NCBI GenBank assembly: GCA_039621445.1
Contig: CP154954.1
Location: forward strand, 42,206,247 to 42,226,246
Direction of reading: 5' to 3'
DNA: 20,000 nt
DNA from: Euglena gracilis
Lineage: Eukaryota
The translations under genes were made by a program, and so were the position numbers. Of this stretch, positions 823 through 19,816 are shown piece by piece. How positions within the stretch are numbered: position 1 is the first letter of the stretch; each line of letters opens with the position of its first letter. The notes beneath the pieces were generated by a model. It saw nothing but the letters and a program-made list of their open reading frames with translations, ran no database searches and had not been told where the DNA came from.

Positions 823-930
823 AACGGCGTGCCGCGGATGGCGAAGGCCGTGGCGGGGGTGCGGCAGGCGGACATCGATGGGCCGGAGGACTTCCGGTAC
901 CTGACGAGCCTGCGGTTCTCCAGCCAGTGC
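823..930 (+). CDS. Cyclase gene exon A (NGVPRMAKAVAGVRQADIDGPEDFRYLTSLRFSSQ); both ends approximate
   Basis: GC3-rich island within ORF 769..990. It shares a frame with exon B, and CGCCCGC is repeated at both candidate junctions. Confidence 0.65.
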
Positions 931-3900
931 CGCCCGCCACCACTGCCCCCCCCCCCAAAGAAAGACAACCTAAAATTGTCGGAGTTCTGAAAGGGATTGG
1001 GGTTAGGGTTTGACGAATAGGATGAAATGGACCAGAATTCATGCCTAAAGTCGGACCACTGTTACACTTAACTGCCTAATTTGGCCTAAATCTTTTCCCT
1101 GATCCTTTTCCCAACGCCAACCATAACCCTGACCCTATCCCTGCGTGTTTGAAAAGTGGACCCCCATTTAATTTGAATCCCATCCATAAAAGGGGTTATT
1201 GTTATTTTTTATTTGTGCGTTTTATAATTTGGGAATTCATCCCCCGCCAGTCGGGCAGATGCTGATGAGAGAGAGATGCTCTTTCAGCTTGAAAGAGAGC
1301 ACATACCATACAGGTGTGGGTGTTTTTATTCCAAGAGGATTGTTTGGGTACAAACAACAGTTGTACCCACGACACCAGCAGAATATCACATGAGAAATGA
1401 ATCAACGGCCAACAAAAATAATTACATGCATATCATATGTGTAGATGGCAGCTCCCGCATATATATCTACATATAACATGCATAATCCTTTAATCCCATA
1501 ATCCATTAATCCATGCATGATCCGATAATCCTTTAATATATAACTGCACATATCCTTTATAAATGAATTCACCAATCGTTCGTTTTTTTTATGTATGTTT
1601 TTCCCCATATTTTTTCTTCCCATGATTTTTGCACCGACTGCAACAGCCCCATGCCCATTGTTGCTGTGCTGTGGCCCGGAGCACCCCCCCCCCCCCCCGA
1701 CCCCCACTGGGCAGGGCGGCGCCCGCAAAGTCTGCGGTGCGGGGAGGGGCTTGACGCCGCCGCCCCCATCCTCCGTGCCCTGCAGGGGGAGTCGGGCGTC
1801 ACGCTGGGCGACGACTACCGCCCCGTCCTGGTCATCTCGGCGTACACGTACCTCCCGGCCCTCCAGGCGGCGCTGGAGCTGAAGGTCGCCCACGGGGCTG
1901 CACGTTGGCTCTGCAACAGGTGGGAAGCACTCCCCAGCCTCCAGCACTGTGACAATGCACACTACACGAGGTCTAAAGCACACCCCCAGGGTTGACGTTT
2001 TCTTTAAAAAAAAACACAAAAAAACACGTTTTCTAAAATCAACTAAATTTTTCCCCTTTTTTTTAAAACTGCAAAATGCACATTTTTGGTTCAAAAACAC
2101 CTTAGGCGGTCGACTTCGCACTTAAGCTGTTCAGAAGTTCTTTGCGCAATCGCACCAGTTCAGAAAATAATTTTTGTGCTCCATCCTTCGCTAGCAAAAC
2201 GAGGTTCATCCCCTTTTTGTGCTTTCGACTGGGCTGACTCCGGCTGGTTTTTAAGTGGCCTCTGGGAGATGCCCAGCCCCAACCCCCCCCCCCTTCTTTG
2301 GCTAGTGGCACGTTTTTGGCGATCGACAGAGACGATGTCTAGCAACCTGAGAATGGGGGAAAACACACAAAAACACTTTTTCCCCTTGGTGCTGGCACAA
2401 AAGCCTTGTGGAAAAAAGGCCCCCTTTTCGTTTAAATCGGCGAAAACCCCGTGAAAGAGGTTTCTGAAAAGCTTCTTTCCCCCCATTTCCTCCCAATAGA
2501 AGAGCGGGGCCGCTGTAAGCGCAGGGTCCAAATAAGGCGCTCCCCCGCGACGGTCCGCTACAAGTCTCAAGTCCGCTACAAGCCCCCCATTTTGATGGAA
2601 TTTCTAAAGGAAATCAACAAAAATCACGCGGCTAGGGTCCAAATGAAAACGTAACCCCCCGCTGTAAGTGCGCCAGCGCTTGTGCTAGGGGGGGGGTCGA
2701 CTTTGGGATCAGGGGATGTGGACCAGTGAAGAAAAGCCACGGAGCACCAGTTTGGGAAGGTTGAGAGGTCTGGAATGTGGGGAGAGAGTTATTGATGTTT
2801 TCAGGGTGTCGGCAGGCGTGAGTGGTGAGGGCACCGGTTACAGCCCACAACCGGCCAACGGGGAAGGGCTCTGGGAGCCAGGGTTGGAAGATGTGCTAAA
2901 GGACGTTTTCCCTGGTTTTAGAGGATGGAAGTTGGCGCCGCGTCTTTATTGTGAAGTGGAAGGGGACATTGCCACTGAATGGGATGTTGAAACAATGGAA
3001 GCTCTTGCACAATGCGCAAAAGAGTTGGTGTGCCGAGTTGTTTGTTTCAAACTGAGTCATGCACCCCCTGATTTTCATGGGGAAATGAAGCTGCTCGGAA
3101 AGGCCGACAGGATCCACTGCTACAGATGCCTTGGGGACAGGCGTGGCAAAACACAGTAGGAGATAAATTCTGTCAATCTGTCAACAGTATCAGAAGCCCT
3201 TGTTTTCACCGATATGTAGAGTCCATAGAGTAAAGACTTTTTTTTTCAGCACCCCGTGGGAATGGGAAGTGAAGAATTGTATTTATTTTTGAAACTCAGT
3301 TGCGCAATTGCGCAAGTGTTTGAAATTTACACGCCTTTGCGCAATTACGCAAGCAGCTTTTTGGTTTTTGTTTGCGCGGTTGTGCAACGAAAGGGCGATA
3401 GGACTCTGGACATCCCGAACCCGTCATTTTTGTCCCAAACGGCAGCCATTCTGGCAGCAGTTGTTGCCAGGCAGATACTCTTCGGAGCTTGTGAACTTGT
3501 CGATCAGCTCCCAGGTTCTTATCTGTGAAATTTGACTGCGTCTGAATGCGGCTCTCCCAAAAGGGCGAAAGGGGGAAAAGATACGGAGGAAAAAATGATG
3601 GGAAAAAGAACGATGGGAATAATTGGGGCACCCAATCATTTATGTTTCCCATCATTTTGCCTGGACCGTAAAATTAGGATTTCCAACATCAGATTAGGAT
3701 TTTGGCTCCAAAAATTAGGAATATCTGGTGGTTTTCCAAAGAAACCTTTTAAGTCCACTTCACCCGAAATGGATTTGGCCAAGTCCACTTTACCCCAAAA
3801 TGGACTTGGCCAAGTCCACCTTACCCCAAATGGACTTGGCCAACTCCATTTTACCCCAAAAGGACATTGCCAAGTCCACTTTACCTCAAATGGACTTGGC

Positions 3901-4932
3901 CAAATCCACTTTACCGCAAATGGACTTGGCCAAGTCCACTTTTCCCCAAACGGACAAAATATTTTCTTAGAACCCTAGATGACAAATTAAAACAACAACA
4001 ACAATAGTTATTTTTTGAAAAATAACGTTTTTTTTAGTAAAAAAACTATCAACTTTGGCAAAAGGCCAAGCCATTTGCAAAAGAAATGCTGACAAACTGG
4101 ACCAGACAGATGGCTGATTGTTGGTCATCATTCTCAATTTTTTTTCAAGAAAATCGCCCAGTCAAATTGAAGGCACAGTGACCTTGCAAGAGGAAGCGAA
4201 GCACTGCTTGGTCACTTGGCGTGAGCGATCGCAAGCAACCCCTGTACTCGTGGTCACGCTGCCCAAAGAAATGCTCCAACAGGGTGCCTTTCTGTTTGCT
4301 CTCCAAACCAGGACGTCCTCGGCGATCCCCGCCGCCCTGTGTGGGGGATGCCTCCGAGGCCGAACAGCCCTCCATCACCGTGGCCAGCCGCCCAGGCTGG
4401 GGTGCCCCCCCAGTTGCACTGAGGCTTCTTGTCCGTTTATGACTTAACTTCGCTTCTGGCCCAGTTTGTGTGGTGTGTCTGGGGTGCCCCCCCCCCCTCC
4501 AGCAGGACGGCTGTGGTGGGTGGGGCGGGGGGGGGGCACCTCGTGAGACAGGGCTGGGCCGGGCCACCCCCCCCCGCCGCCCACCCCGGCGCTGCGGGCC
4601 GCCTGGCGCTGCTCTGTGTGGAGGCGGCGGCGTGCTGCCTGGTCGCCCTCGCCTTCATCATCAAGGCCATTGTGGCGTGGATCGAGAAGGTGTGGGCGGA
4701 GGGCCAGCGCACGGTGCGGGACCAGCGCCGAGGCCGGCCCCCGCTTTTTTTTTTTTTCTTTTTTTTTTTTATTTTTTTGTTTTTTTTTCCTTTTTTTTTT
4801 TGCCTTTTTTTTCTTGTTTATTTTTTTTGTTTAATTAGTTTTTTGGTTTTTTTTTTTCTTTTTTTTTTTTTTTTCTTTCTTTTTTTTTTTTTATTTTTCT
4901 TTTTTTTTTGTTTTCTTTTGTCTTTTTTTTTT

Positions 4933-4983
<51 letters not shown>

Positions 4984-5655
4984 TTTTTCTTTTTTTTTTT
5001 TTTTTTTGCCTTGCCCCTTGCCCTGGGCCCGTGGACACCGCCGGGTGGGGGACTGGGTGGGGGGAGGGCAGCCCCTGTCTCAGCATCATTTTCCCCTTTG
5101 GGGGGCGCTTTGGGGGGGCGTTGGGGCCGCTGTTTCCGCCGCCCGTGTCCCCCTGGGGGCGGCGGGGGCGTTGTGGGGGGCGGCCTCCCGCCGGCAGCAG
5201 CTGCTGACCTTCCTGGACCGGATGTACCCGGCGTCCGTTGGCCAGCCTGCCGGTCACAAGCCAGCCCTCCTCAGCCGCAAAATCCACCCCTACCCCTTTC
5301 CCCAGGCCAATGATCAAACCTGTGTTTGCAGGAAGAGGATGATCAACGGATGAAGTGTGCCAAAAATGTCCTACAGCAAACGGGCAGCACCGCACCGCAC
5401 AACAGCGTCGCCCACACTGCCCCCGTGACCGGCCGCCTGCCGTTGCCCGGGACCTCATCCTGACGCGGCCGCGGTGCGGTGGTATGATCAGCTTCATGGT
5501 GGCGGTGCCCCACGCCTCCGTCGTGTTCGCGGACATCCACGGCTTCACCAGCACCTGCCACCGCCTCACCGCGCAGCAGCTGATGGCCGGGGCTGCCCCA
5601 GTTCCAATGCGCTTTTCGTTCTCTGGCCTCCATCTGGCCCAAAGCCTTCCTGATG

Positions 5656-5721
<66 letters not shown>

Positions 5722-8013
5722 AAGAATGGTTCATGCGTGCGGGTGTGTGTGCACTTGTCCTTCATGTGCATGCAGGTTGACCAAAGATTCTCAAACAAAA
5801 TTTTTGGTAAGGACACAAATTTTGCTGCATTTTTTTTAACTGTAATTTCCAACCGGTTTCCCAACCAGGCGTCCGTTCAAGGGCTCCCAGCCAGCACCTG
5901 CCCGTGGGTTGGGCCAGATCCCGAGGCAGACCTTCCTCGGGTACACGTTCAGTGTGATGGACGTCGTGGCCAGCCGGGCCGGGATGTGCCGCGTGAAGCT
6001 GGTCGGGGACTGCTACATGGCGGTGGCTGGGCTGCCGGGCAGCGCTGACACGCCGTGCCGCAGCGCCGTCTTCTTCGCCACGTGGTGTGCCCAGGTCTTC
6101 AGCGACCGGCCTGCCCGCTGTGCATGAACCCGAGCTGAGTCGTGTGGGGAATCTCACTGTCTTGACGCCAAACCCCACTGGTGTTTGTTTTCACCTGGCC
6201 CCTCCCCATGCCTGACAGGAATGGTGGCATGGTTGGTGTGATTGATCCCCGGGCCACGCATAATCCCTCTTTGATTTGACAAATGGATGATTGGAAACGA
6301 AGGAGGGGTGCCCGCCTGGGCAGGCACTCCAAGGCACTCCTGATCCGACCTCCCCCCCGTGGGGGGTAGCGCACACGGCCAAAAGTGCCCTAGCACAGAC
6401 CCCAGCGCCGAAGGCGCAGGGGAGCCAAGAATGGCCTATTTTCAAAAGAATGTGCCTGGGCACATGCCGAAATCAGACCCCATTAGTTGCACTAAGGCTT
6501 CTTGTCTGTTTATGGCTGGCGCCAACTCCGCTTCTGGCCCAGTTTGCTGTGTAGTGGAGAAAGTTGTCAGACAGTCATGGTCCTCGCCGAAGTTTCCTGG
6601 GAGGGGCAAAGAAAGGGAACATGACAGCTTGACATCGACCACCCCAGCACACCTTTTTGCCAGGAAGAGGTTCAAAGTATCATGCAAGCGTCATTCTTCC
6701 TAGCACAGGTATTTGCTTTTTGTGGTGTGTTCATTTCATTTTTTTTTGGTCATCAGTTTAGCTGTCTCAAAGCGTGGTGAGGGGGGTCGTCAGAAGGCAA
6801 TGTGCAACAGCAGTCTTAGCGAGCCTTTTTGCTTTGTTCTGTCTCTTCCCTGTTTCGGGGGGGGGGGGTGGGCATGGAAGGCCATTGCGGCACAGGGGGG
6901 CAGCGGGCGCTACACCCACCCGCTGCAGAACCAGGCCACCATGGACGGATTGGCCGCCTTGGCTTGCAACAAGGGGCCCTGGCCGGACCCGTGGCGCACC
7001 GATTCCACCACCACCAGTGAGATCGGGGCCGGGCTCTATGGCTTCGCGTATGTGTGTACGTGCGTTCGTGCGTGTGTCCATTTGTGCATTTGTGCATTTG
7101 TGCATTTGTGCGGTGCGGTGCGTGTTTGCGTGTGTGTGTTTGCGTGTGTGTGCGTGTGCGCGCGCGCGTGTGTGTGTGTGTGTGTGTGCATGTGTGTTCC
7201 GTGTGTGCCCCAAGTGATCGGTGTGTTTGCCATTAAGAAAGGCTTGCGCCGCTGCCTTGATGCCTGCCTCCGCCCTCAGTGGCGCTGGGCGAAGTGAAGT
7301 GCCGTCCCTGGTGGAACCCGCAGGCCATGACGCTGGCCGGCCACGGCACGCCGTGCGTCCTGCGGTACGGCATCGCCACAGGCCGCGTCACGGCGGGCGT
7401 CCTCCCCGGCAACACCCCGCCCGCCCCGGCGCTGCTCCCCCCCCTACGACCCACCCCCCTGGTCGGAGGAGAGATTATCATTGGAGGGGACAGTCCTGTG
7501 TTTCTGCATTCTTGTGGACACTGCCGCTGCTGTTTTCGCCCCTGGGTGTTGCTAACCGTCAAAAGCCAAGAGCAGGCATCAACTCAAACCCGCCAATGCA
7601 GCCAAGTCTGCCCCGAAGATGTTCAGCGGGTAGTTTTGTTGCCCCAAAGTGGTTGACTTTTGCTTTCCACCGCGGCGCTGCTTTGCCGCTGTTGTGTGAT
7701 GCCGGGGGTTCCGCCTGCCTGGCCTCTTCCAACCCCCCCCCCCCCATGCCTCGTCCCTCCGGCCACGCGGGGGCCGCCGGGATCCTGGACGTGTGGGGCA
7801 AGGTGGTCACCTTCGCCAACCAGATGGAGCGCCTCAGCCAGCCGGGGCGGGTCCTCCTCTGCTCCCAGACGTACAAGTCTGTCACGCCCAGGGCGGCGGG
7901 CAGCCTGCCCGCCCGGCAATGACGTACTCCTTTAGGGGGCGGCGACCTCTGGAAGGGGGGACAGGTGTCCTTGCCACCAGGTAAAGGTCAGACAGGGAGA
8001 CAGACACATACAC

Positions 8014-8055
<42 letters not shown>

Positions 8056-11000
8056 GGACTTGCATGCATTGATGCATGCGTGCATATATGTATGTATGCA
8101 TGCATGATGCACACATCATTCATGCATACCAGGGCGTTGCTTACCTCCCCCCCCTTGTCCAACGACTGGCCTTGTCCCCCGGTCAGTAGCGATCTTTTTC
8201 CAGGTAATCTTTTTTTCAGACGTTCGCGTTCTTTTTCTTACAACTTTCATGGCAGATTTTGTACCGAGTTAGCCAGCACATACGGGAGCCTATGTGTTGG
8301 TGCCTTGTTGATTGCCGCACGTTTCTCCCTTTTTTTCATCATGAATCTGAGAGTTGTGGCCATGTCAGGCAAAGGAAACTTTTTTTCTTCACCTTGGGGC
8401 AAAGCAGGAGGAAAAAATTTTGACCCGGTCTTGTCTAACGGCCACCCCCCCGGTCAGTAGCGAAAATAGCGACCCCCCCCCCCCACGGTCAGTAGCCATG
8501 TTCAGCGGTCGTTGGACAAGGGGGGGGGGGGTAAGAAAAATTTGATCCCCCCAGGGGGGACCCTGCCAGCCAAGCCTTTTTCCAGCTGGCAGCCCTTTTC
8601 CAGCCCCGGACCCCCTCCCCCCATCAACGAGATTGATTTATTTCCGGCCGCCCGAAGGGTGGCTAGACGGCAACAGATTTTTCACTTCCAGGAGGTACAG
8701 AAATGGGCCAAAAATGGGCCAAAAATGGCTTAGAAAAGGGTTGGCAAGGGCAAGGAAATCGTTGTTTTTTTTTAATTGGCAGTTTTTTGGACATTTTTGT
8801 GACTTCATTTTTTTGAACCCGGTTCGACCCCAAGTCGGGCCCAGCTCCAGCCTGGGACACCTATGGGGCGGGGAGGGAGGGGGTCAGCCAGCAGCCTTTT
8901 TCCAGCCAGCTCACGTTTTCCAGCCCCTGAGCTGGACCCCCCGGGAGTCCTAAGCAACTCCCTGATGCATACATACAGACATGCATTCATACATACAGAA
9001 AGAGAAATGGACAGACAGACAGACGGACGGACGGACGGACAGATGGACATACACAGGGATAAAAGTGAATTTATTCACCTTATCTATTCTCCTCTGAGTT
9101 GCATGTCAAACAAAACAAACACATGAAAGCTTTGCTTTTGCAGTTTGATTTTTTTCTTCTGCTTTTTTAAAAAAGGAGGAACCAATTGTTGTTTTTTTTG
9201 CCCCGGTTTGGCCCTGCGGGGTCCTGGAACGGCGCCGGATCTGGGCAAACTCGGTCGACTGGGGGAGATTCGGCACTTAATTAGAAGGATAGGGCTAGGG
9301 TTGGGATTGGCGCGCCGAAAATTGGCACTTTTGAGGGACCCAGTTGGGCCGGACAGTGGGTTCCGTTTTGGGAAGATCCTGAATCGCCCGTTTTTCCCAA
9401 AAATGCCCGAATTCGACCCAAATTCCCCCAAAATTCGCCCGCTGTGCAGCCGAACTCCTCCCTGAATTCCGAAACGAGGGGGCCTCCGGGAATCCGGCCG
9501 CGACCCTAACCCCATCCCTAAAAATAGCCCGACTTTCGCCTGAGGGTCGGACGGGGGGATGCTACATGGACCACTCCCCTGGAGCTACTATTTGGCCCGC
9601 GGGCCAAGTTGTAGCTTGCTGCGATTTCTTCCATCAACTTTTTGCAGCTGTCTTCATTTTTGGCTGCCGAGAGCTTTCGCCCCTCCTCGTCCCCATGGGG
9701 GTGGGGACCCGCTCTCGGCTTCCAAAAAGTCTATGCGGCCGAGCGAGAGGCCCCGGTGCCCGGCCTCCCCGAAGCCCGGACCACATCCTGGGCCGCAACC
9801 TTGATGCCTCCCGGGGACCCCCTCCCCCCGGCCCTCCCCGGGGTGGGGCCCTCCGCCCTGGCCCCGGCGGACGACGTCGCCAGCCACGCCTTCACGTTCG
9901 AGGACGGCCCGCCGCTGCCAGCCCGCCCCTCGCCCAGCGCCGCCGCCACCAGCCACTTCGTCCGCTCCGCCCGCGGCCTCCCGCCCTGCCTCGTGCCTGG
10001 GGGGGCCCCGGCCGACGTCCCCGACACGGGGGGGGGGGCGGGGGGAGGGGGCAGCTGTTGATTGCAAAGGCAGTGGTGGAGCGCAGAGCTTGCGTTGCAT
10101 GTCTGCCTGAACACTCACCTGCACCACAGGCACAGTTTTCTTTCCGAGCTCTATAGCCCTGATGTTGTTGCCAGAAACGCGAGATAAAAATTCAAACTCA
10201 ACCATCCAAAAGGAGAGGTCAAATCCTTTTCTGGAGTGCAAGGGAACTCACTGTGCCAGCAACACTGTTAGAGTGAAAATCAGATCATTTATTTCAAATC
10301 AGATCTAAAATCAGATCCAGAAATGAAAAATTCCTGGAATTATTATGAATTTTACCCGGTGATTATGGTTTTTACCTGGTGAGACTTATTTGAGCCGAGA
10401 ATCTATGGATTTCGCATGACCTATTTGTTTTTGGGGGCTCATGCCAGCTTCCATCTCTTATTGGCCACACTAATCACGAACTGTACAGAGAGTTAATTTC
10501 ATTCTTTGTATCAAGCAATTTCACTGAAATCAAACACCCGTGGATGGGTCGCGGTCGGGCTGTACAGGATTCCCCGAAACCCAATGGGTGGTCGGTGGAG
10601 GGGGTCCAACCCCCCCCCCACCCCTTCCGTATTTCTGGTGGGATTATTCGGCCAAAGTTTTCTTTACGCGACTGCCATGGTGGGTGGGGGTCGACCCCTC
10701 CCTGGGTGGGGTGCCAACCCCCCCACCAGGCCTTCCCGTACAGCCCTGGGGTGGATGGATATGAAAATAATGTGTGTGTGTGTGTATGCGTGTGTGTGCA
10801 CATGCGTGCGTGCGTGCATGTGTGGGTGGGTGGGTGGATGTGTAGGAGGGTGGGTGGGTTGGTGTTGAGATGTGGGGGTGTTGGCAGGATGGCAGTGATC
10901 TTTGCCCCCCCATGCCGCGTCGCCGGGCGCCTCGCCGGTGGAAGCGGATCGTTGGTTTGGCTGTCGGACGAACCCCGGTTGGCCACTCCCCCCCCCCCGC

Positions 11001-11758
11001 TTCTGTGAGGGCCGCCCCACCGACGGCGGAGCTGGGGCTCTCCCCCGTCGCATACGACGCTGCCGGTCCTCCGCCCCCGGACCCCACAACCTCTGCAGAC
11101 CCCAGCTCCCCAGCCAGGCAGGGACTGCTGTGCGGGCTGCCCCCCTCCCATGGAGCGCACTGCTGCGCGCTGTTTAGGCCAGAGTTCCGAGGTTCAGGGG
11201 CACAGGGCAAGAACCAGGGAGGCCCAGGAATGTGTCGAACGGGGGCCTTTTTTTGCATCAATTCCCAACTGCTCAACCTTTCATTGCGTTTTCGACAACG
11301 TTCAAATGGATATTTTCCCTCTGCATTGCATGGGTCAAAGCTGCTGATGAAGGATCCTTTGACGCTTTTCGGCAGGGGTCTCGCAGGGCAGGGTCGAAAT
11401 AATTTGGGATTTGCTCAAAATGAGGACATTGCACACTCGGGGCGATTATGAGGCAGTTACACCATCGGCAGTGATACAGTGAGGCAGTTCTTGCGCAGGA
11501 GAGTGCGTGGCCGTTCCCATCAGCTGAAAGGTATTTTGGAATCCATGATTCTGGAGGGGGCACAGCAGTACTTCCTGCCTTGTCTGCCCGTGCTTGTTTT
11601 GCTTGCGTGCACAGTTCAGTGCACACACATAACGTTCGGTGTGTTTTCTTTGTTTTTTTTTTTGGTTTTCCATCCACTGCAGGCAGGGACCCCCACAGGT
11701 CCCTGACGCCGACGACGCACCGTTGGTCCTCCTCACGGAGGCTTCCTCTGGTACTTGA
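823..11758 (+). CDS. 5'-partial multi-exon gene: receptor-type class III adenylyl/guanylyl cyclase-like protein (Cache-like domain, TM helix, cyclase domain)
   Basis: Predicted exons ~823-~930, ~1721-1887, 4347-4389, 4601-4726, 5193-5239, 5445-5584, 5929-6107, 6909-7016, 7280-7418, 7781-7885, 9866-9994, 11025-11115, 11711-11758 join into one stop-free frame. Motifs occur in the expected order: GDDYRPVLVISAY..LKV/DASEAEQP, a hydrophobic helix, FLDRMYPASVA, VVFADIHGFT, VKLVGDCYMAVAG, LRYGIATG, LDVWG..ME, PGRVLLC. Confidence 0.88.
927..1724 (+). other. Nonconventional intron 1 (exact ends ambiguous: 927-1724, 929-1720 or 932-1720 all keep frame)
   Basis: CCGCCC (930-935) pairs with GGGCGG (1714-1719). 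No AG at any of these candidate 3' ends. Confidence 0.6.
1721..1887 (+). CDS. Exon B, Cache-like segment (..AAAPILRALQGESGVTLGDDYRPVLVISAYTYLPALQAALELKV); start within 1721-1725
   Basis: RAL.G.SG....DYR...VI.AY........L.LKV resembles the C-terminal half of dCache-type domains (recognised by eye). High GC3. Confidence 0.8.
2896..3225 (-). pseudogene. Possible decayed non-LTR retrotransposon AP-endonuclease fragment
   Basis: Minus strand reads WTLHIGENKGF*YC*QIDRIYLL..VGLSEQLHFP, resembling the (W)T..RIDRI..SDHxP C-terminal motifs. Recognised by eye only. Confidence 0.3.
3751..3955. repeat. 30-bp minisatellite, about 7 units, palindromic
   Basis: Unit AAGTCCACTTTACCCCAAATGGACTTGGCC starting at 3751, 3781, 3812, 3842, 3872, 3902 and 3932. 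Confidence 0.95.
4347..4389 (+). CDS. Exon C, 43 nt (DASEAEQPSITVAS)
   Basis: Joining to exon B gives LKVDASEAEQP, matching the KxDxxExxxP end of Cache domains. The preceding intron's ends pair. Confidence 0.75.
4390..4600 (+). other. Nonconventional intron 3 (211 nt)
   Basis: C|G..C|G junctions. CAG-GCTGGGGTG pairs with CACCCCGGC-g-CTG, with the register shifted by one (+4/-7). Confidence 0.7.
4412..4478. repeat. Short dispersed repeat, copy 1, flanked by a 15-bp direct repeat
   Basis: AGTTGCACT.AGGCTTCTTGTC.GTTTATG..CGCTTCTGGCCCAGTTTG recurs at 6485-6546. CTGGGGTGCCCCCCC occurs at 4397-4411 and 4479-4493. Confidence 0.8.
4601..4726 (+). CDS. Exon D, transmembrane helix plus linker (RLALLCVEAAACCLVALAFIIKAIVAWIEKVWAEGQRTVRDQ)
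   Basis: Hydrophobic stretch of ~20 aa followed by a charged helix, within ORF 4429..5313. Confidence 0.8.
4727..5192 (+). other. Nonconventional intron 4 (466 nt)
   Basis: gcc-GAGGCCG pairs with CGGCCTC-ccgcc; C|G..C|G junctions; +4/-6 register. Confidence 0.75.
4745..5007. repeat. ~260-nt interrupted poly(T) tract in intron 4
   Basis: Directly visible. Confidence 0.95.
5193..5239 (+). CDS. Exon E (RQQLLTFLDRMYPASV)
   Basis: Resembles the LL..MLP..VA segment that precedes class III cyclase domains. Both flanking introns show +4/-6 pairing. Confidence 0.82.
5240..5444 (+). other. Nonconventional intron 5 (205 nt), textbook CAG/CTG type
   Basis: T|ggcCAG..CTGccgtt|G, plus a perfect 9-bp pair GCCGGTCAC/GTGACCGGC. 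Confidence 0.88.
5445..5584 (+). CDS. Exon F, start of cyclase domain (ARDLIL..ASVVFADIHGFTSTCHRLTAQQL)
   Basis: FADIxGFT motif with the first metal-binding Asp at codon 5532. Confidence 0.92.
5585..5928 (+). other. Nonconventional intron 6 (344 nt); sliding 1 nt gives GC..AG ends
   Basis: ggc-CGGGG pairs with TCCCG-aggca (+4/-6). The join gives QQLMTFLG. Confidence 0.78.
5658..5720. repeat. (TG)n microsatellite
   Basis: Directly visible. Degenerate TG tracts also occur at ~7050-7207 and ~10771-10825. Confidence 0.97.
5929..6107 (+). CDS. Exon G (TFLGYTFSVMDVVA..RVKLVGDCYMAVAGLP..CAQVFSD)
   Basis: KxxGDCYM motif: Lys codon 5996, second metal-binding Asp codon 6008. Confidence 0.92.
6108..6908 (+). 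other. Nonconventional intron 7 (801 nt), reversed CTG/CAG stem
   Basis: C|ggcCTGCCCgCTGTGC pairs with GCACAG..GGGCAGcgggc|G. Confidence 0.78.
6485..6546. repeat. Short dispersed repeat, copy 2
   Basis: Closely similar to 4412-4468 apart from a short central indel; same left boundary. Confidence 0.8.
6909..7016 (+). CDS. Exon H, insertion within the cyclase domain (RYTHPLQNQATMDGLAALACNKGPWPDPWRTDSTTT)
   Basis: Upstream intron ends pair in the +4/-6 register. Downstream GTGAGA donor is phase-compatible with the CAG acceptor ending at 7279. Confidence 0.72.
7017..7279 (+). other. Conventional GT-AG intron 8 (263 nt)
   Basis: GTGAGA donor, pyrimidine-rich CAG acceptor, phase 1 on both sides. 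Confidence 0.75.
7280..7418 (+). CDS. Exon I (MALGEVK..PCVLRYGIATGRVTAGVLPGNT)
   Basis: RxGIxTGxVxAGV cyclase motif. Confidence 0.9.
7419..7780 (+). other. Nonconventional intron 9 (362 nt)
   Basis: GCCCCgGCG (7423-7431) pairs with CGCgGGGGC (7766-7774), i.e. +5/-7 on the same register. It restores motif spacing. Confidence 0.78.
7781..7885 (+). CDS. Exon J (PILDVWGKVVTFANQMERLSQPGRVLLCSQTYKSV)
   Basis: DVWG..V..A..ME....PGRV motif. The join gives GVLPGNTPILDVWG, the same spacing as canonical GVIGxxKPxYDIWG. Confidence 0.92.
8015..8055. repeat. (GACA)n microsatellite; related GACA/GACG run at ~9010-9045
   Basis: Directly visible on both sides of the 8130-8964 insertion. Confidence 0.93.
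8130..8964. mobile_element. Non-autonomous hAT-like TIR element (MITE), 835 bp, inside intron 10
   Basis: TIRs CAGGGCGTTGCTTA / TAAGCAACTCCCTG (13 of 14 match). Perfect 8-bp TSD ATGCATAC at 8122-8129 and 8965-8972. No transposase ORF. Confidence 0.88.
9866..9994 (+). CDS. Exon K (ADDVASHAFTFEDGPPLPARPSPSAAATSHFVRSARGLPPCL)
   Basis: FxFE..TxxFV-like end of the cyclase domain. Both flanking introns pair in the +4/-6 register and keep the frame. Confidence 0.78.
9995..11024 (+). other. Nonconventional intron 11 (1030 nt)
   Basis: T|gccTGGGGGGGCCC pairs with GGGCCGCCCCAccgac|G (10 of 11 positions). Confidence 0.7.
10555..10748. mobile_element. Possible degenerate MITE in intron 11
   Basis: GGGCTGTACAGGA at the left is nearly complementary to TCCCGTACAGCCCTG at the right. 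No TSD found. Confidence 0.4.
11025..11115 (+). CDS. Exon L (AELGLSPVAYDAAGPPPPDPTTSADPSSPA)
   Basis: Defined by stems of both flanking introns and by frame continuity; no protein motif. Confidence 0.62.
11116..11710 (+). other. Nonconventional intron 12 (595 nt)
   Basis: C|aggCAGGGACtgCTGTG pairs with CACAG-GTCCCTGacgcc|G. Confidence 0.62.
11711..11758 (+). CDS. Probable last exon M (DDAPLVLLTEASSGT*)
   Basis: Follows a GTCCCTG-acgcc intron end complementary to CAGGGAC at 11119. Phase 0, ending at TGA 11756-11758. Confidence 0.55.
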   Translation, partial: DDAPLVLLTEASSGT

Positions 11759-14700
11759 CCAGCGTGTCAAATAGCCACCCACCAGTCGGCCGGGCGTGTT
11801 TTCTGACACAGGTGAGAGAGTCAGGGTGGAGAGCCTGGCCTTTCCCCTCAGGCCACAGTGTCTCTCAGGCTTGCTCACCCAGGAGCCCCAACCCACCATC
11901 ATTTCCGGGCTGTGGCGTCCCTCAGAGAGCGCCCGGAGCCCACCCTTCCCTCCTCCCCACGTTTCCACCGCCTGATCCCTTTCCTCCTCTGGGTCTGGAT
12001 GGGCCGAGGGAAGCCCCCTTTGCCTCGCAACGCATCCTGCATGACGTAGCACCTTCGAACCAGGTCTTCCCCACCTGCCAGCTTTTTGTTATTCCGGCGG
12101 GGTGTTTCCTGGCTTTCCATGTCTGGCTGATGGAGGGTGCTTGAAGACACGTTATCGGAGGTGACATTTCCTTTGAAGGCAGCAGCCCATATGCCAGTGT
12201 GCTGTGGTATTTTGAAGGCTCCAGCTCGCTCCAGGGAAACACCTTAATTGGTTCAGCTTGACAGTTTATTTGGGAAAATTGAAACGCAGCTTTTTTAAAA
12301 AAAAAAAAAGTGTTTAAGGGGTCAGGTGTTGGTTTTCACGTGATGGTGCGGCGTTGCTGGAGCGGGCAAATGCAGAGTGATGGAATGCGTCCTGGGGGGG
12401 GGGGGGGCGCAGCGCTCCTCCCGGCGCTCCTCCTGGAGCGGGGGGACAGATGGAGGCGGCGGGGGCAGCCCTGGGTGTCGGGGCCGCGGCCACTTTGTTT
12501 GCATCGCATGCAAACCCCCGCCACTGCCGGGCCCCTCGCCCCTTTCCCCTCCGTTAACCTTGGCCCGGCCCCCGTCCCGGCCTACCCCCCCCCCCCCCCC
12601 CCCCCTAAACCCCAAATATAAATCCCAAATTTGGATCCCAAACTAAGATAAATAAGAATAAAAGGCAACATACAAACCTCCCTGATTTGGCGACCAAAAA
12701 TAATCCCCTCTTGGAAGCGCCGATAGCTGGATCGCGAACGTTGAGGGGTGGGATGTCACGGGAGGTTGGTCTGTGGGAGGTGGGTGCCGCGGCCGGCCGT
12801 GGCCCAACCACGGCGAATTTTGGCTTTCAAAATTTTCTTTTGGTTAGGCCAAAAGAAAAGAGGAAACCCAACGTCGAGAGACAGCAAAATTCCTGAAAAT
12901 GTATGATTTTGTTACAGTTTTTAGCAATTCATTGGACTTTACATTTTTTGCTCCAAAAATGGTGACCAACTAGAATTTTGCTTGAAAAAATGGTGAATTT
13001 GGGCGAGATGAGGGCAAATTTGGAAACATCATGCTTTCAGCCACAGAGAACTCCTGGGGGGTTTCGGTGCCAAGCGCCGGAAAACTTTTTTTTGGAATTG
13101 CCTTGGAATTCCGATTCGGGAAATCCCCGGGGGGGGACTGAGCCCGCGAAGCCCGTCACGCAGTCAAACGCTCTGCTCCCCCGAGGATGCGGCCTGCCCC
13201 CGGCACTGCCTCCCCCGCATCGCCCTCTGTAGAGTACGCACAGAGCGCCCGACCACTTGTCACGCGCTCCAACACTTTGCCTTCTCACTGGTGTTTTTTT
13301 GGCCCCACCTGCCGCCGCCGCGCGATGGCATCCGGCCGGGAGCCAGGCCTGTGGCGGGACGACACTGTGGATGTGCAATTTTCCCGGATTGTGTTGCACA
13401 GCAGGGGTTGGTTTGAAGCCAGAGGGAACCCTACCCACCAGGGGGTCCAGCCATCCAGCACTTTTTCCCCGGCCCGCACCTCCCAGATGGGCTGCGGAGG
13501 TGAAAAATGCCCAAAATAGGGCATTTTTTGGGTGGTTTTTGGTTTTTCACCTCTAAATTTGGTTGAAAAAACGGCAACTCAGTTGGATTTGGTCTTTTCC
13601 TTTTTTTTTGTACCTGCCGAGTCCAGCTCCTAGCCCGGTCCCCCCCGAACCCCCACCCCTTTGGGGGGGGGGGGGCAGCAAGCACCTTTTTTTCCAGCCA
13701 GCACCTCTTTCCAGCTGTCCCGCAGGACCCTGGAACGTCAGTAACTGGAGGGGCTGATGTGGTTTGACACACACAAATGCGGAAATCCTTTCCTCCATTT
13801 GTTCCCGCCCTAATCACTTTCTCTGGCAAAATGAAAATGCCTTCAAGGCCGGGCTGAACAGCTGGCTGTGCTGGCAGGTGAGTGAATCCATAGAAACAGT
13901 CCAATTGCTCCCTGAAAGGAGTGCCCCGAGGAAGTGGAATGGCTTGCATCATACTGGTGGGTGTCGGGATAATCTGTGGGTTTGCTGGTGCCGGGAACGA
14001 TAGTTTCCAGGGCAGGACCCTGACAGGCTTTTGGAAACGACAAGCCAAGCCAAGGCCAAGGCCAGCCAAGGCCACCGCCATACTCCCCCCCCCCTGGTCC
14101 CCGTCCTGCTTACATGCAAACTTGGCCCCCCTGAAGCTGGCCTTTGGCCTTCTGCATATGGCGACCAAAATTTTTAACGTGCAAATTTAGCCCCCAAAGA
14201 TTGGCCCCCAAGCATCCCGGGGGGGGGGGGAGGGTGCCAAAGGCACTCTCGTTTCCCGGAATGGAAACGGCGTGATCCCGTCTTTTCCCGACCTGCCGAC
14301 GATGAAGTGGACCTGCCCTCGTCACCCACGCTCGCTGTGATGGGGGACGCTGACCCCCTGTTGTGTCGATTCAGGTCACCCCGTCCCCCGGCCCCCGCAG
14401 ACGGCTTTCTTCCCTTCCCTTCCCCCCTCTCCCTCCGCCCAGCACCGATGCTTTTCCCATATACCAGCCTGGCTCCCTACCCAGGCTGCGCCAACCCCCC
14501 CTCCCTCCCCTCCCTCCTCCCCCAGGGAATTTGTTTCACTGGAGATCACAGGCAGCATTTTCTTGTTTCCCCAGCCAGCTGCTCTCGCTGGGCTGCAACC
14601 CCCCAGGTCAACAGAAATAATGTTGCCCCCTTCGCTTGATGGAAGTACAGGTGCGCTTATAGCGGACCACGGCCTCCGGCGGCAGGGGGGGGCATTTCTA

Positions 14701-15004
14701 TTTGGGCCCCACCTGCGTGATTTTTGTTGATTTTCTTTGGAAACCCCAGCAAAATGAGGTTGCACTTGTGGTGGCCTGCCACCTTCGGTGGCGGGGGTCC
14801 GCTTTTGTTTGGACCATGGCGGACCTGTGCTTCTATTAGGGGGTATTAGGGGGGTATGGGCACGAGACACCAGGAAAATAAACAAAAGAATGGCTGTTTC
14901 TCGTAATCTTGGCTGAAAAGTCCTTACCCAGCTTTGATTTGGGCTTTTTTACCAGTCGTCGGGTTGCCAGTTTTCAGGAACCAGCTGGGTTCAGCATACA
15001 ATCA

Positions 15005-15290
15005 CCAGTCACTGTCCCCCCCCCCCCGGATGGGTGATTGGTTTTTTTTTCAGAGTGACTGGCTGAGGGACAGGCATGGACCCTGCTTCCCGGGGGGGGG
15101 GGGGGGGTTAAAAAATGCCTCAAGTGACCCGGCGCCGAAGGCTCTGGAAATCCTTTCGCCTTTTTCATGTTTGTGGTCAAATTTCCTTTGGATTACGGAG
15201 TGGCTGCCCCCCTCCCCCAGGGGGGGAGTGACTGACTGGTTTTCTGGAAAACAGTGACTGACTGGTTTTTGAAAGAGTGGGAGTGACTCC
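15005..15290. repeat. Cluster of GTGACTG(ACT)GG motifs in both orientations, probably a TIR-element remnant
   Basis: CCAGTCAC at 15005; GTGACTGG or GTGACTGACTGG at ~15055, 15228 and 15254, between C and G runs. Termini not resolved. Confidence 0.45.
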
Positions 15291-17639
15291 CCCCCACCAG
15301 GGGTCGGTAACAATTTTTGTATGCCCCCAAGGGGCATCGGTCCAGCCAGCACCTTGCTTCAAATTCCCTGACACCCCCCCCCCCCGACCCTCCTCATCCC
15401 TAACCCGCAGAATTGCACTGCCCAGGCCCACCCCCTCGAGTTGGCTCTGGCCTGGCAACAGCTATTGCGGCAAACGGGCTGCAAGGTTGGAAGGCGGAAG
15501 GGGGGAGCGCATTTCTTGGGGCATGGCCATGCTGGGAGTTCTGCGCACAGCAAAGCGGGGGCGAAGTTTTCTCTCTTGACTGAAGGGGGGGGGCTCCAAG
15601 TTTTTCGATGGGCATGAATCATGCTCCTTGGCATTAGCCCGCCAGGCCACCCTGCCTGGCCTGGAAAGCCTGGCCTGGCTGGAAAGGCGCACACGGCACC
15701 TTTCAACTCACCTCTCCCCCCTTCCTGGCAGTTTGCCAACCCCCACCCTTTTCCCCGCTGCTGTTTTGTTTTGGAAAAAGGCCAAATGCGTCCGGGATGG
15801 GGGGATCACGCTTATTGCTTTTGTTGCATGGAAACGCAAGTAGGTGCCCAAGCCAGAATTTCTGGGCAACGGAAAAAGCATCGTCAGCAGTGCGGGGCCG
15901 TTTGGGGGCCCCACATTGCTGGTCTGCAGTGGGACAGCGGAAGCAACCCCCCATGGCCGGCTGCATTTGACTGCCCGGCACCTTTCCGATAACCCGCGCC
16001 GCCGGGCTGGACGCTGGGCGGGAGTGGCCCTGGCAGCCACTCAGCATCCCAGTGCCCTGGCCTCTCAGCGCCCCGAGGAGGACAGCGCCGCTGCCACCGC
16101 CAGCCGTTCATCCCGGGCACCGCTGTGACAGGCGTGGACCGCGCCCGGTCAGTGCTGCCGGGGCCGGCAAATTATCCCCAGACAACGTTGCACTGCTCCA
16201 AAGCTTTGTAAACCCGAGCACCTTTGCAGGGGGTGGTGGGACGTTAAGTGTGTCCTTTACCTGCAATTGCAGGGGGCAACTTGCTTGGGAGGTCACTTCT
16301 CGCCGAACCAAGCCGTCCTTCTTTTAACTTGGTGGACCCCCCCCGGGACGGTGGGGGGGTCCTGCAACAAGGAGCCGGGGCAAACCTCAAGCATTGTAAG
16401 GCGCCAGAAATTTTTTAGACATTTCCTGCAACATGGCCCGTTGTTTTATGGGGTATGGGGATTTGCGCCACCTTGGGTAGGTGGCGCCCTCCAGGGTCTA
16501 GTTGAACATCTGACCACGATGAAAAAGGGGTTTTTTTTGACTGCTGATCGAAGGACGACGCTATCCATTACCCCAAAACCTGGGACACGGCAGGGCGCGG
16601 GCTGAAAGTTTCTTGTTTGTCCATGCCCTCCTCCTCCTCCCCTTCCCTTTTTCCTTTCCTCTCCGCTCCGGTGTCCCCCCAGCCTCACCCAGCCCTCCCT
16701 CACAATACACCGAGGCCACCATCGAGTTGGTGCCTGGCCGCCACGCGCGACATTGCCGCCACATCACAACCCACACTGTAACCCTGCACATTATCTCTTT
16801 ACCACATGCACTCTGGTGAGTGCCGTCTCTCTCTTTTGAATTGGTGTTGCTGGGGGAACTCATTTGGGGGGGAACTCCTTACCGACGCGAGAGTGTGTGC
16901 TTGTGGGGGAAGTGTGTTGTCAGTCGGTGTGGTGCGTGATTGGAAGTTTGCTTCCGATTTTTTTTGTGCAAGCATGAAATGCACGATGTCTCATGGTTTC
17001 CCCCAGAAAAGAATAAAAGTTACAGGAATAAATTTGCAACAAGTTTCAATTCAATTTCAACCCCTTTTGGGAGTTGAGGTTTTTTCAGTCCAAGCACCAA
17101 ATCTTCATTTACCACAGGGACAAGGTGGGTGGTGCCGATCCTCAAAAACTCCGGTTTGGGTTTCAGAAGCTTTCTTCTCTCAGCTAGCCCTGTGCAAAGG
17201 CCCTGCATCCTGGAGCTATTGAGAGTCCACTGTGACCACACCGAATCTCCCTCCGAAGCTTTACCACGTCCACAATCAAGGCGGTGGTAGTTTGCAAGCA
17301 CCCGACAAGTTTTGACAGATTGTTCATCCTGGTCCACGCCGTCATCTCCTGCTGGGTTTCTCGCCATATCCCTCGCCGCTCAGTCAAACTGCCCACTTCC
17401 ACCTCACCTAAACAGCACCCCCAACACCACCTAACACCGCAAACCACGCAACCGGCCACACAGACTCCAGGGACACGAAACCCTGCTCAGAACCCGACGC
17501 TCACAGCACAGACAGCCACCCTTCAAACGGGTGTACGGGTTTTGGGTAGGGTAGGGTAGGGTAGGGTGTCCCCCCAGCCACCCTTCCTGGGCCGGGGGGG
17601 GGGTCCTACCCCCCCACTGCCATCGTATATCGAACCCTG

Positions 17640-19350: not shown

Positions 19351-19816
19351 CAGGGGGGGGGGGAAATGCAACTTGCATAATTTGCATTTTTTTGCATAAT
19401 CGGCTTTTCCCGAAATTTGCATTTTTTTGCATTTTTTTGCATTTTTTTGCATAAAATATTTTCCCTGTAAATTTTTTTTTAAATTTGGGTTTTGTTAGTT
19501 TTTTTGGAATTTTTTTGCATATTTTTGCATTTTCTACATAAAATATTTTGCCCTGGAAAGAAATTTTGTTGTTGGTTGCCATATTTATGGATTTTTTTTG
19601 CATTTCTTTGCATTTTTTTTGCATAAAATATTTTGCCCTGGAAATTTTTTTTGATCTTAGGCAGCAAAGCTCGGTTATCCCTTCCGACCCAGCTTTTTCT
19701 CATGTTTTTCATGCAAGTTGCATTTTTTTGCATTTTTTTTGCATTTTTTTGCATTTTTTTGCATTTTTTTGACTTGCATAATTTGAAGGGCCCAGTTGCA
19801 TTTTTTCCCCCCCCTG
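19351..19816. mobile_element. MITE with CAGGG termini and internal T(n)GCA arrays
   Basis: CAG(G)nAAATGCAACT / AGTTGCA(T)n(C)nTG inverted ends. CAGGGAG directly repeated at 19344-19350 and 19817-19823 (7 bp). Three internal copies of CATAAAATATTTT(G/C)CCCTG. Confidence 0.8.

Follow-up and report, generated by a model that had tools for sequence, protein, structure and literature searches.

Euglenid genes can mix conventional introns with nonconventional ones, which do not end in AG and whose two ends pair with each other (PMC3935182, PMC12501133). Pertinent sections of PMC3935182 (2014) place this pairing between positions +4..+6 and -8..-6 and describe a 5′ cut flanked by an exonic pyrimidine and an intronic purine, and a downstream exon whose first base is a purine; a passage of PMC6221363 states the same +4,5,6/-8,7,6 pairing. 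For Euglena gracilis, the relevant sections of PMC11170887, which covers 28,337 introns, give the consensus CCAGG at +3..+7 and CCTG at -9..-6, report that the ends of nonconventional introns pair, and describe a C-rich tract in conventional ones. Here we describe a 20,000-nucleotide (nt) stretch of E. gracilis DNA (assembly GCA_039621445.1, contig CP154954.1, positions 42,206,247 to 42,226,246; hereafter the window) in which part of an adenylate cyclase gene is interrupted by twelve introns. One of them is a conventional GT-AG intron, and about eleven are very probably ordinary instances of the known noncanonical splicing rule of Euglena.

That rule was defined by knock-ins in E. gracilis as N3-CDG ... 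CH'G-N5-6|R (PMC12501133, published in 2025, which also reports 71.8% nonconventional introns in E. agilis). In the same study, single changes in CAG or CTG lead to loss of splicing, and among compensatory middle-base swaps only CTG-CAG is functional. The 5′ spacer is strictly 3 nt, the 3′ spacer tolerates one extra nucleotide and, with less product, two; the exon start prefers a purine; pairing behind the motif is needed, its removal breaking function; and synthetic introns splice. The code covers 61.2% of nonconventional introns and leaves 38.8%, and an origin from elements resembling miniature inverted-repeat transposable elements (MITEs) is proposed (PMC12501133). The mechanism is still open in the relevant sections of PMC12621601 (December 2025), which name RNase III with a ligase, a tRNA-like pathway and the spliceosome as candidates. 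Passages of PMC12621601 and PMC12501133 cite Guminska 2021 for an intron that leaves as a circle, and excision independent of the spliceosome likewise goes by citation in these two papers. Passages of PMC3935182 and PMC12621601 draw an analogy with tRNA and archaeal splicing, and PMC3935182 suggests a tRNA-type endonuclease. The noncanonical introns of diplonemids, another lineage, likewise lack canonical borders and have ends that base-pair, a likeness that goes by their description in part of PMC12621601.

The nonconventional introns of the window share with the described euglenid introns the 3′ end without AG, the +4..+6/-8..-6 pairing, the 3-nt and 5-6-nt spacers, the pyrimidine|purine 5′ cut, the purine-first exon, direct repeats that allow the cut to slide, the CAG/CTG, CGG/CCG, CGG/CTG and CTG/CAG pairs, and the mixing of both kinds of intron in one gene. 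Both the kind and the rule are already known; we find no difference in kind, and nothing here is new in kind. An earlier note on this DNA, made from the letters alone, had called the geometry established, and rightly so: it was described in PMC3935182 and tested by mutation in PMC12501133. The reporter experiment proposed in the note, disruption of a stem followed by compensation, is already published in essence (PMC12501133).

The window is G+C-rich nuclear DNA of the euglenid type. Its + strand carries a class III cyclase broken up over separate open frames, in 13 exon pieces between about 856 and 11758. The Pfam family PF00211 matches 5846-6127 (+) with an E-value of 3.2e-05 (24.0 bits, cutoff 21.9), and weaker matches below the cutoff lie at 7218-7922 (E 0.00041) and 5343-5780 (E 0.11). 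The nearest named protein is an E. gracilis sequence of 1055 residues that carries PF00211 (eukprot:EG_transcript_764, hereafter P0002), about 65-66% identical over exon 7. In tblastn searches P0002 matches the window piecewise at 30-65% identity, and it is therefore a paralogue and not the product of this gene.

We rebuilt the exon-intron model from the open frames, the paralogue and the triplets named in the earlier note (Table 1). The joined exons form 500 codons with one stop only, the terminal one at 11756-11758. The spliced product aligns to P0002 residues 583-1027, ungapped for about 265 residues spanning introns 1-7 and ungapped again at introns 10 and 11, and 124-126 relatives align to it at a score of at least 120. 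By this comparison we assign the gene to the receptor-type class III adenylate cyclases of euglenids; the window holds its C-terminal half, on the + strand, from about P0002 residue 583 on, with the N-terminal half upstream of it. The 11 candidate nonconventional introns all lack a final AG; they begin with GC in seven cases, with GG in three and with AG in one, and by the 2014 nomenclature, as far as the consulted sections of PMC3935182 set it out, the seven that start with GC would be classed as intermediate or nonconventional. GT-AG borders occur only in intron 8 among the twelve, where a helix at the register was looked for and none was found. The claim that cyclase motifs are split by sequences lacking GT-AG is thus borne out, with the PF00211 matches falling on separate pieces. 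Our model also reproduces the spans of 205-2459 nt, the pyrimidine|purine 5′ cut and G-first exon in all ten introns that the earlier note had listed, its three purine-ending introns, and its intron 3 off by one, which here has a 6-nt 3′ spacer.

When joints are left free, homology-sized windows for introns 1-10 contain 97-499 in-frame candidates of 3 base pairs (bp) per intron, many of them in helices of 7-11 pairs. A 3-bp match at the register is therefore no evidence by itself. We fixed 14 joints without reference to stems (introns 1-7 and 9-12, and three introns downstream of the stop codon), ten by alignment to the paralogue and four by RNA, and allowed every slide-equivalent cut. A fit required at least three contiguous pairs, three unpaired bases on the 5′ side, five or six on the 3′ side and a purine opening the next exon. 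The register is clearly enriched: 13 of the 14 anchored introns fit it, while 98 other register cells average 4.53 and none exceeds 11, the high-scoring ones being neighbours on the same helices. The claim that frame-restoring joints sit on a +4/-6 register holds for the cyclase introns among these 13 and fails at intron 9. In a shift control covering nine introns, 15 of 216 off-model positions of the same length passed the loose test. In a partner control, the 5′ and 3′ triplets of the same intron were complementary in 14/14 cases and swapped donor-acceptor pairs in 55/182, in a table that uses the stem cut of intron 9. Direct repeats give between two and seven slide-equivalent cuts in 13 of the 14 introns, with seven each in introns 3 and 5. 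In 13 introns (introns 1-7 and 10-12 and the three downstream), the next exon opens with G in 12 and with A in one (intron 1), the upstream exon ends in a pyrimidine in 11, and the first intron base is a purine in all 13.

Relatives of the protein agree with these joints. A search with P0002, made without a profile, collected 150 proteins. Their tblastn matches end at 1887, 5585, 6109, 7410-7413 and 7883-7886 and begin at 5930/5933 and 7767-7785, points that coincide with modelled exon ends. Alignments are ungapped within eight residues of the joint in all 120 relatives that span intron 6, in 32 of 41 at intron 2, 33 of 46 at intron 3 and 49 of 71 at intron 4. The fractions are lower at introns 1 (14/29), 5 (27/95), 7 (15/112), 8 (13/110), 10 (2/63), 11 (2/17) and 12 (0/2), where the family itself varies. 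Of 17 alternative cuts aligned to P0002, none scored above the model (698-730 against 731).

Under the known rule, the two ends of each intron would pair in a helix whose first pair joins +4 to -6, or sometimes to -7. The cuts would then leave 3 nt before and 5-6 nt after the helix, and a purine, here nearly always G, would open the next exon. Recognition would draw on pairing together with a short sequence context, 5′ G-S-C-C-R-G-G and its partner C-Y-G. From the literature we infer that the machinery reads this geometry and that the introns leave as circles.

Several observations weigh against this assignment. Five of the eleven cyclase triplets (CGC, CAC, GAG, CGC and TGG) fall outside the published CDG/CH'G motif, which matches the 38.8% left over in print. 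Intron 9 is off the register at the joint favoured by homology, where it has a first-pair mismatch. When the outermost 25 nt at both ends are folded as a duplex, z-scores against shuffles run from -0.43 to -3.53 for the 14 introns, and the conventional intron, at -1.39, lies within that range. Summed over all relatives, cuts of the same length at 4386..4596 (intron 3), 6106..6906 (intron 7) and 9984..11013 (intron 11) score equal to or slightly above the model, so that homology appears to pin the length of an intron better than its exact cut. Assembled RNA contigs from three runs (X1-X3) are nearly empty over the cyclase exons (depth 0-2) and share mostly intronic repeats with the window, and RNA evidence is at hand for one of the twelve cyclase joints only, that of intron 12, as a 12-base overhang.

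The RNA set comprised contig runs X1-X3 and about 5% of a raw RNA run, X21, all placed on the whole window. One X1 contig that starts at 11708 bears 12 extra letters identical to 11101-11112 (+), a sequence unique in the window, and the overhang therefore marks the intron 12 joint. Slid by three positions, this joint reads AGG CAG ... CTG ACGCC|G. Among the 15 best-supported of 132 joint rows from X1-X3 and X21 there was no cyclase joint. The RNA check suggested in the earlier note thus places one cyclase joint, on the register, and none of the others among those 15 rows. Raw X21 reads reach a depth of 1-4 in bins that hold exons. RNA also places three joints downstream of the stop codon (Table 1), and at each of these four joints one slide position fits N3-C[AG]G...C[CT]G-N5-6|G. 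At homopolymer G or C runs (10028-10051, 12584-12606 and 15107), X21 reads pile up, their joints switching strand and their loose ends consisting of G or C only; these are probably artefacts of sequencing or mapping.

It could be argued that the joints are mis-assigned, that the gene is a silent or decayed paralogue, and that the stems are chance matches which a stem-guided reading picks from G+C-rich DNA. The 97-499 free-joint candidates per intron and the ease with which shuffled G+C-rich arms fold point that way, as does the near absence of the cyclase exons from the three contig runs. Protein searches point the same way: they returned no fragment of the gene's own transcript, a comparison of exon 7 with longer proteins giving only P0002 and an unspliced open reading frame, P0001, and comparisons of exons 4 and 9 with proteins of similar length giving no such fragment either. 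We nevertheless regard this explanation as very unlikely. A 500-codon frame is open over 12 joints, the fit to P0002 is ungapped and 13 of 14 introns lie on the register; moreover, X21 reads cover the exon bins and one joint is present in RNA.

P0001, a 137-residue sequence from public run assemblies, opens within intron 6 and continues unspliced into exon 7. Its exon part shares 97% identity with the window, its intron part far less, and a second, diverged copy of the gene therefore exists, likewise interrupted at this position by an intron. Scans of the window with Rfam and for tRNA genes gave no matches.

In the three RNA-supported introns downstream of the stop codon, a short C[AG]G/C[CT]G pair marks the joint and the best helix does not. 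Across the 14 introns tabulated in the window, position +1 holds G in 12; C or G fills +2 and C fills +3 in 13 each; +4 holds C in 12, +5 a purine in 13 (T in the other) and +6 G in 12, a consensus that we summarise as G-S-C-C-R-G-G. CDG triplets occur in 9 of the 14 tabulated introns and in 6 of the 11 cyclase introns, beside a published share of 61.2% (PMC12501133). A scan for the strongest helix within 15 nt on either side agrees with the model in introns 2, 4 and 12, and in intron 9 only for a rejected cut at 7422..7786; in intron 10 the strongest helix is one pair longer than that of the model. For intron 2 the model cut is both the top-scoring in-frame helix and the sole same-length shift that fits. 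As a predictor of cuts, the strongest terminal helix fails on RNA-supported introns too, with the true cuts of the downstream introns ranking 25th, 42nd and 84th of 1922 by helix strength.

The bases of the 5′ spacer are not free: GCC or GGC stands there in 11 of the 14 introns over 932-13336. C at +3 is already in print (PMC11170887, in the sections consulted), and no statement of the complete G-S-C at +1..+3 was found in the literature sections examined. Pairing of spacers or exon flanks was not seen beyond chance, with 3-8 of 14 introns paired per position against about 5 expected. Introns of tRNA and archaeal type share with those described here a cut set by distance from a helix and, going by the cited report, departure of the intron as a circle, and differ in their bulge-helix-bulge; a search of the 14 introns for bulge-helix-bulge or double-strand pairing across the cuts gave nothing above chance.

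The earlier note had read these introns as defined by a positional stem and not by sequence; on such a reading base identity would be irrelevant and any co-varying pair of +4..+6 and -8..-6 triplets would set the cut. Part of this stands: the cuts do lie at a fixed distance from a terminal stem, with a 5′ spacer of 3 nt and a 3′ spacer of 5-6 nt, which is the published geometry. Helix and position as the only features read are also what one would expect from the pairs CAC/GTG, GAG/CTC, TGG/CCA and, in intron 1, CGC/GCG, which sit exactly on the register at joints ungapped to the paralogue. The helices of introns 2 and 4 are, in frame, the strongest in the scan, and the five non-CDG donors are complementary to acceptors of other introns in 9/65 combinations only. 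In addition, the published rule itself reaches 61.2% of nonconventional introns only (PMC12501133). Against these points stands the strong 5′ consensus, present in 12-13 of 14 introns at +1, +2, +3, +4 and +6, with nine of 14 triplets conforming to CDG. Moreover, the strongest helix misses the joint in RNA-supported introns (ranks 25-84 of 1922), published single substitutions abolish splicing, one compensatory middle-base swap alone proved functional, and RNA support is present at none of the non-CDG joints. We therefore judge a reading by helix and position alone to be improbable. Nor does the partner triplet co-vary in every listed intron, as had been claimed: in intron 9 a C.C mismatch occupies +4/-6. 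The proposed check by folding the first and last 25 nt proved uninformative; the folding fails to discriminate in this G+C-rich DNA.

Terminal complementarity and direct repeats might also be mere transposon scars, that is, inverted ends and a target duplication that the excision machinery does not read. The direct repeats described above, with two to seven equivalent cuts in 13/14 introns, are what such scars would leave, and a MITE-like origin has been proposed (PMC12501133). A dispersed repeat is shared by introns 3 and 7 and heavily represented in RNA contigs; the 211-nt intron 3 lies largely over it, which fits a transposon origin of some of these introns. Origin and function are compatible, however, and knock-ins and synthetic introns have established motif, spacers and pairing as required and sufficient (PMC12501133), so scars without function, as a full account, already run counter to this mutagenesis and we give them only a slight chance.

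The repeat shared by introns 3 and 7 is a 40-nt stretch (4405-4444 and 6478-6517) that is 85% alike in its two copies, and RNA-contig depth reaches 2607 in the bin around the second copy (6004-6670). Simple repeats are present in other introns: seven 30-nt copies in intron 2 (3737-3986), a T-rich stretch of about 280 nt in intron 4 (4741-5010), (TG)n in intron 6 (5654-5720) and (GACA)n in intron 10 (7982-8064). At the 3′ end of the window, repeats of the type TTTTTGCA occupy 19395-19800, with an RNA-contig depth of up to 5620.

Some cuts in the cyclase gene deserve separate mention. Intron 1 had been called ambiguous, and rival cuts do exist; as a GC-AG intron at 929..1714 or with a 9-bp stem at 924..1727, it gives P0002 scores of 707 and 703, against 731 for the model. 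The cut at 932..1726 is best by homology, being the sole option tried that is ungapped to P0002 and retains a conserved cysteine. For intron 9, the best-scoring cut is 7419..7780, that of the model rebuilt after the earlier note, which yields N-T-P|I-L-D-V-W-G. Here CGC at +4..+6 faces GCC at -8..-6, not GCG, and five pairs follow from +5/-7. Cuts that keep the loop length (362 nt) are ungapped in 96 of 109 relatives at 7414..7775 and in 100 of 112 at 7419..7780. The stem cut at 7422..7786 has the best stem of the region (seven G-C pairs, 3-nt and 5-nt spacers and a G-first exon); it was rejected, as it loses one residue from the loop before D-V-W-G and is ungapped in 0 of 105 relatives. In intron 5, an alternative cut at 5246..5438 adds four residues and scores 717, against 731 for the model.

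Table 1. Exons and introns of the cyclase gene and of the transcribed region downstream. Intron ends are written as 5′ spacer and triplet ... 3′ triplet and spacer|first base of the next exon
Feature	Positions	Strand	Remarks
Exon 1, as far as seen	856..931	+	Open frame back to 745; P0002 tblastn match covers 856-930; spliced alignment begins here
Intron 1, best candidate	932..1726	+	GCC CGC ... GCG CCCGC|A; 4 pairs; homology only
Exon 2	1727..1887	+	At least 10 relatives have matches ending at 1887
Intron 2	1888..4346	+	2459 nt; GCC CAC ... GTG TGGGG|G; 8 contiguous pairs; triplet not CDG; ungapped to P0002
Exon 3	4347..4389	+	43 nt; ungapped to P0002 across both joints
Intron 3	4390..4600	+	211 nt; GCC CAG ... 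CTG CGGGCC|G; 6-nt 3′ spacer; 7 slide-equivalent cuts
Exon 4, transmembrane segment	4601..4726	+	Alignment to P0002
Intron 4	4727..5192	+	GCC GAG ... CTC CCGCC|G; 7 contiguous pairs; triplet not CDG; top in-frame helix
Exon 5	5193..5239	+	47 nt; alignment to P0002
Intron 5	5240..5444	+	205 nt; GGC CAG ... CTG CCGTT|G; 9-bp helix deeper inside
Exon 6, start of cyclase domain	5445..5584	+	Weak PF00211 match; matches of relatives stop at 5585
Intron 6	5585..5928	+	GGC CGG ... CCG AGGCA|G; 5 pairs; joint ungapped in 120/120 spanning relatives
Exon 7, cyclase core	5929..6107	+	PF00211, E 3.2e-05
Intron 7	6108..6908	+	GGC CTG ... CAG CGGGC|G; 6 pairs; joint restores SD-R-Y as in P0002
Exon 8, variable insert within cyclase domain	6909..7016	+	Alignment to P0002
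Intron 8, conventional	7017..7279	+	GTGAGA ... CTCCGCCCTCAG; C-rich pyrimidine tract, CAG end; in frame in spliced model
Exon 9	7280..7418	+	Matches of relatives end at 7410-7413
Intron 9, homology-favoured cut	7419..7780	+	GCC CGC ... GCC GCCGG|G; C.C mismatch at +4/-6, then 5 pairs
Exon 10	7781..7885	+	PF00211 match; matches of relatives stop at 7883-7886
Intron 10	7886..9865	+	1980 nt; GCC CAG ... CTG GCCCC|G; 8 pairs
Exon 11	9866..9994	+	Alignment to P0002
Intron 11	9995..11024	+	GCC TGG ... CCA CCGAC|G; 5 pairs; triplet not CDG; ungapped to P0002
Exon 12	11025..11115	+	mRNA joint can be written from 11112|11708 through 11115|11711
Intron 12	11116..11710	+	AGG CAG ... CTG ACGCC|G; 8 pairs; only cyclase intron with RNA support
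Coding end	11711..11758	+	Stop 11756-11758; exon extends to 12057; contigs cover 11749-11969
Nonconventional intron past the stop codon	12058..12479	+	AAC CAG ... CTG GGTGTC|G; 6-nt spacer; cut cannot slide; joint 12057>12480 in X1-X3 contigs and 4 X21 reads
Nonconventional intron	12563..13202	+	GCC CGG ... CTG CCCCCG|G; joint 12561>13202 in X1-X3 contigs
Nonconventional intron	13334..14402	+	GGC CGG ... CCG CAGAC|G; joint 13332>14402 in contigs of X1-X3 plus 2 raw reads
Predicted nonconventional intron	15420..16037	+	GCC CAG ... CTG N5, exon opens with C; from piece coordinates only

Beyond the stop codon, a transcribed region (11759-16216) runs through at least three, and probably five, further nonconventional introns. 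The joined exons of 11708-16216 contain no long open frame. Contig depth is 13-83 downstream of the stop and 0-2 over the cyclase exons. This region could be a long, intron-bearing 3′ untranslated region, a separate transcript, or the landing place of reads from better-expressed paralogues; for the last option we note several base differences between the downstream contigs and the window.

The four or five non-CDG introns, one of them mismatched at the first pair, all keep 5′ G-C-C, spacers of 3 and 5 nt and an exon that opens with a purine, A at intron 1 and G at the other four. If these introns are cut at the joints given here, the machinery might accept Watson-Crick pairs of any kind throughout the triplet, given a long helix or a G-S-C context, and the code would be a preference and not a requirement; we offer this tentatively and hold it to be less probable than not. 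If true, such a looser code would explain part of the 38.8% of introns left over. The known noncanonical rule of Euglena can thus be read from the raw sequence of one gene, which is useful for annotating such genomes.

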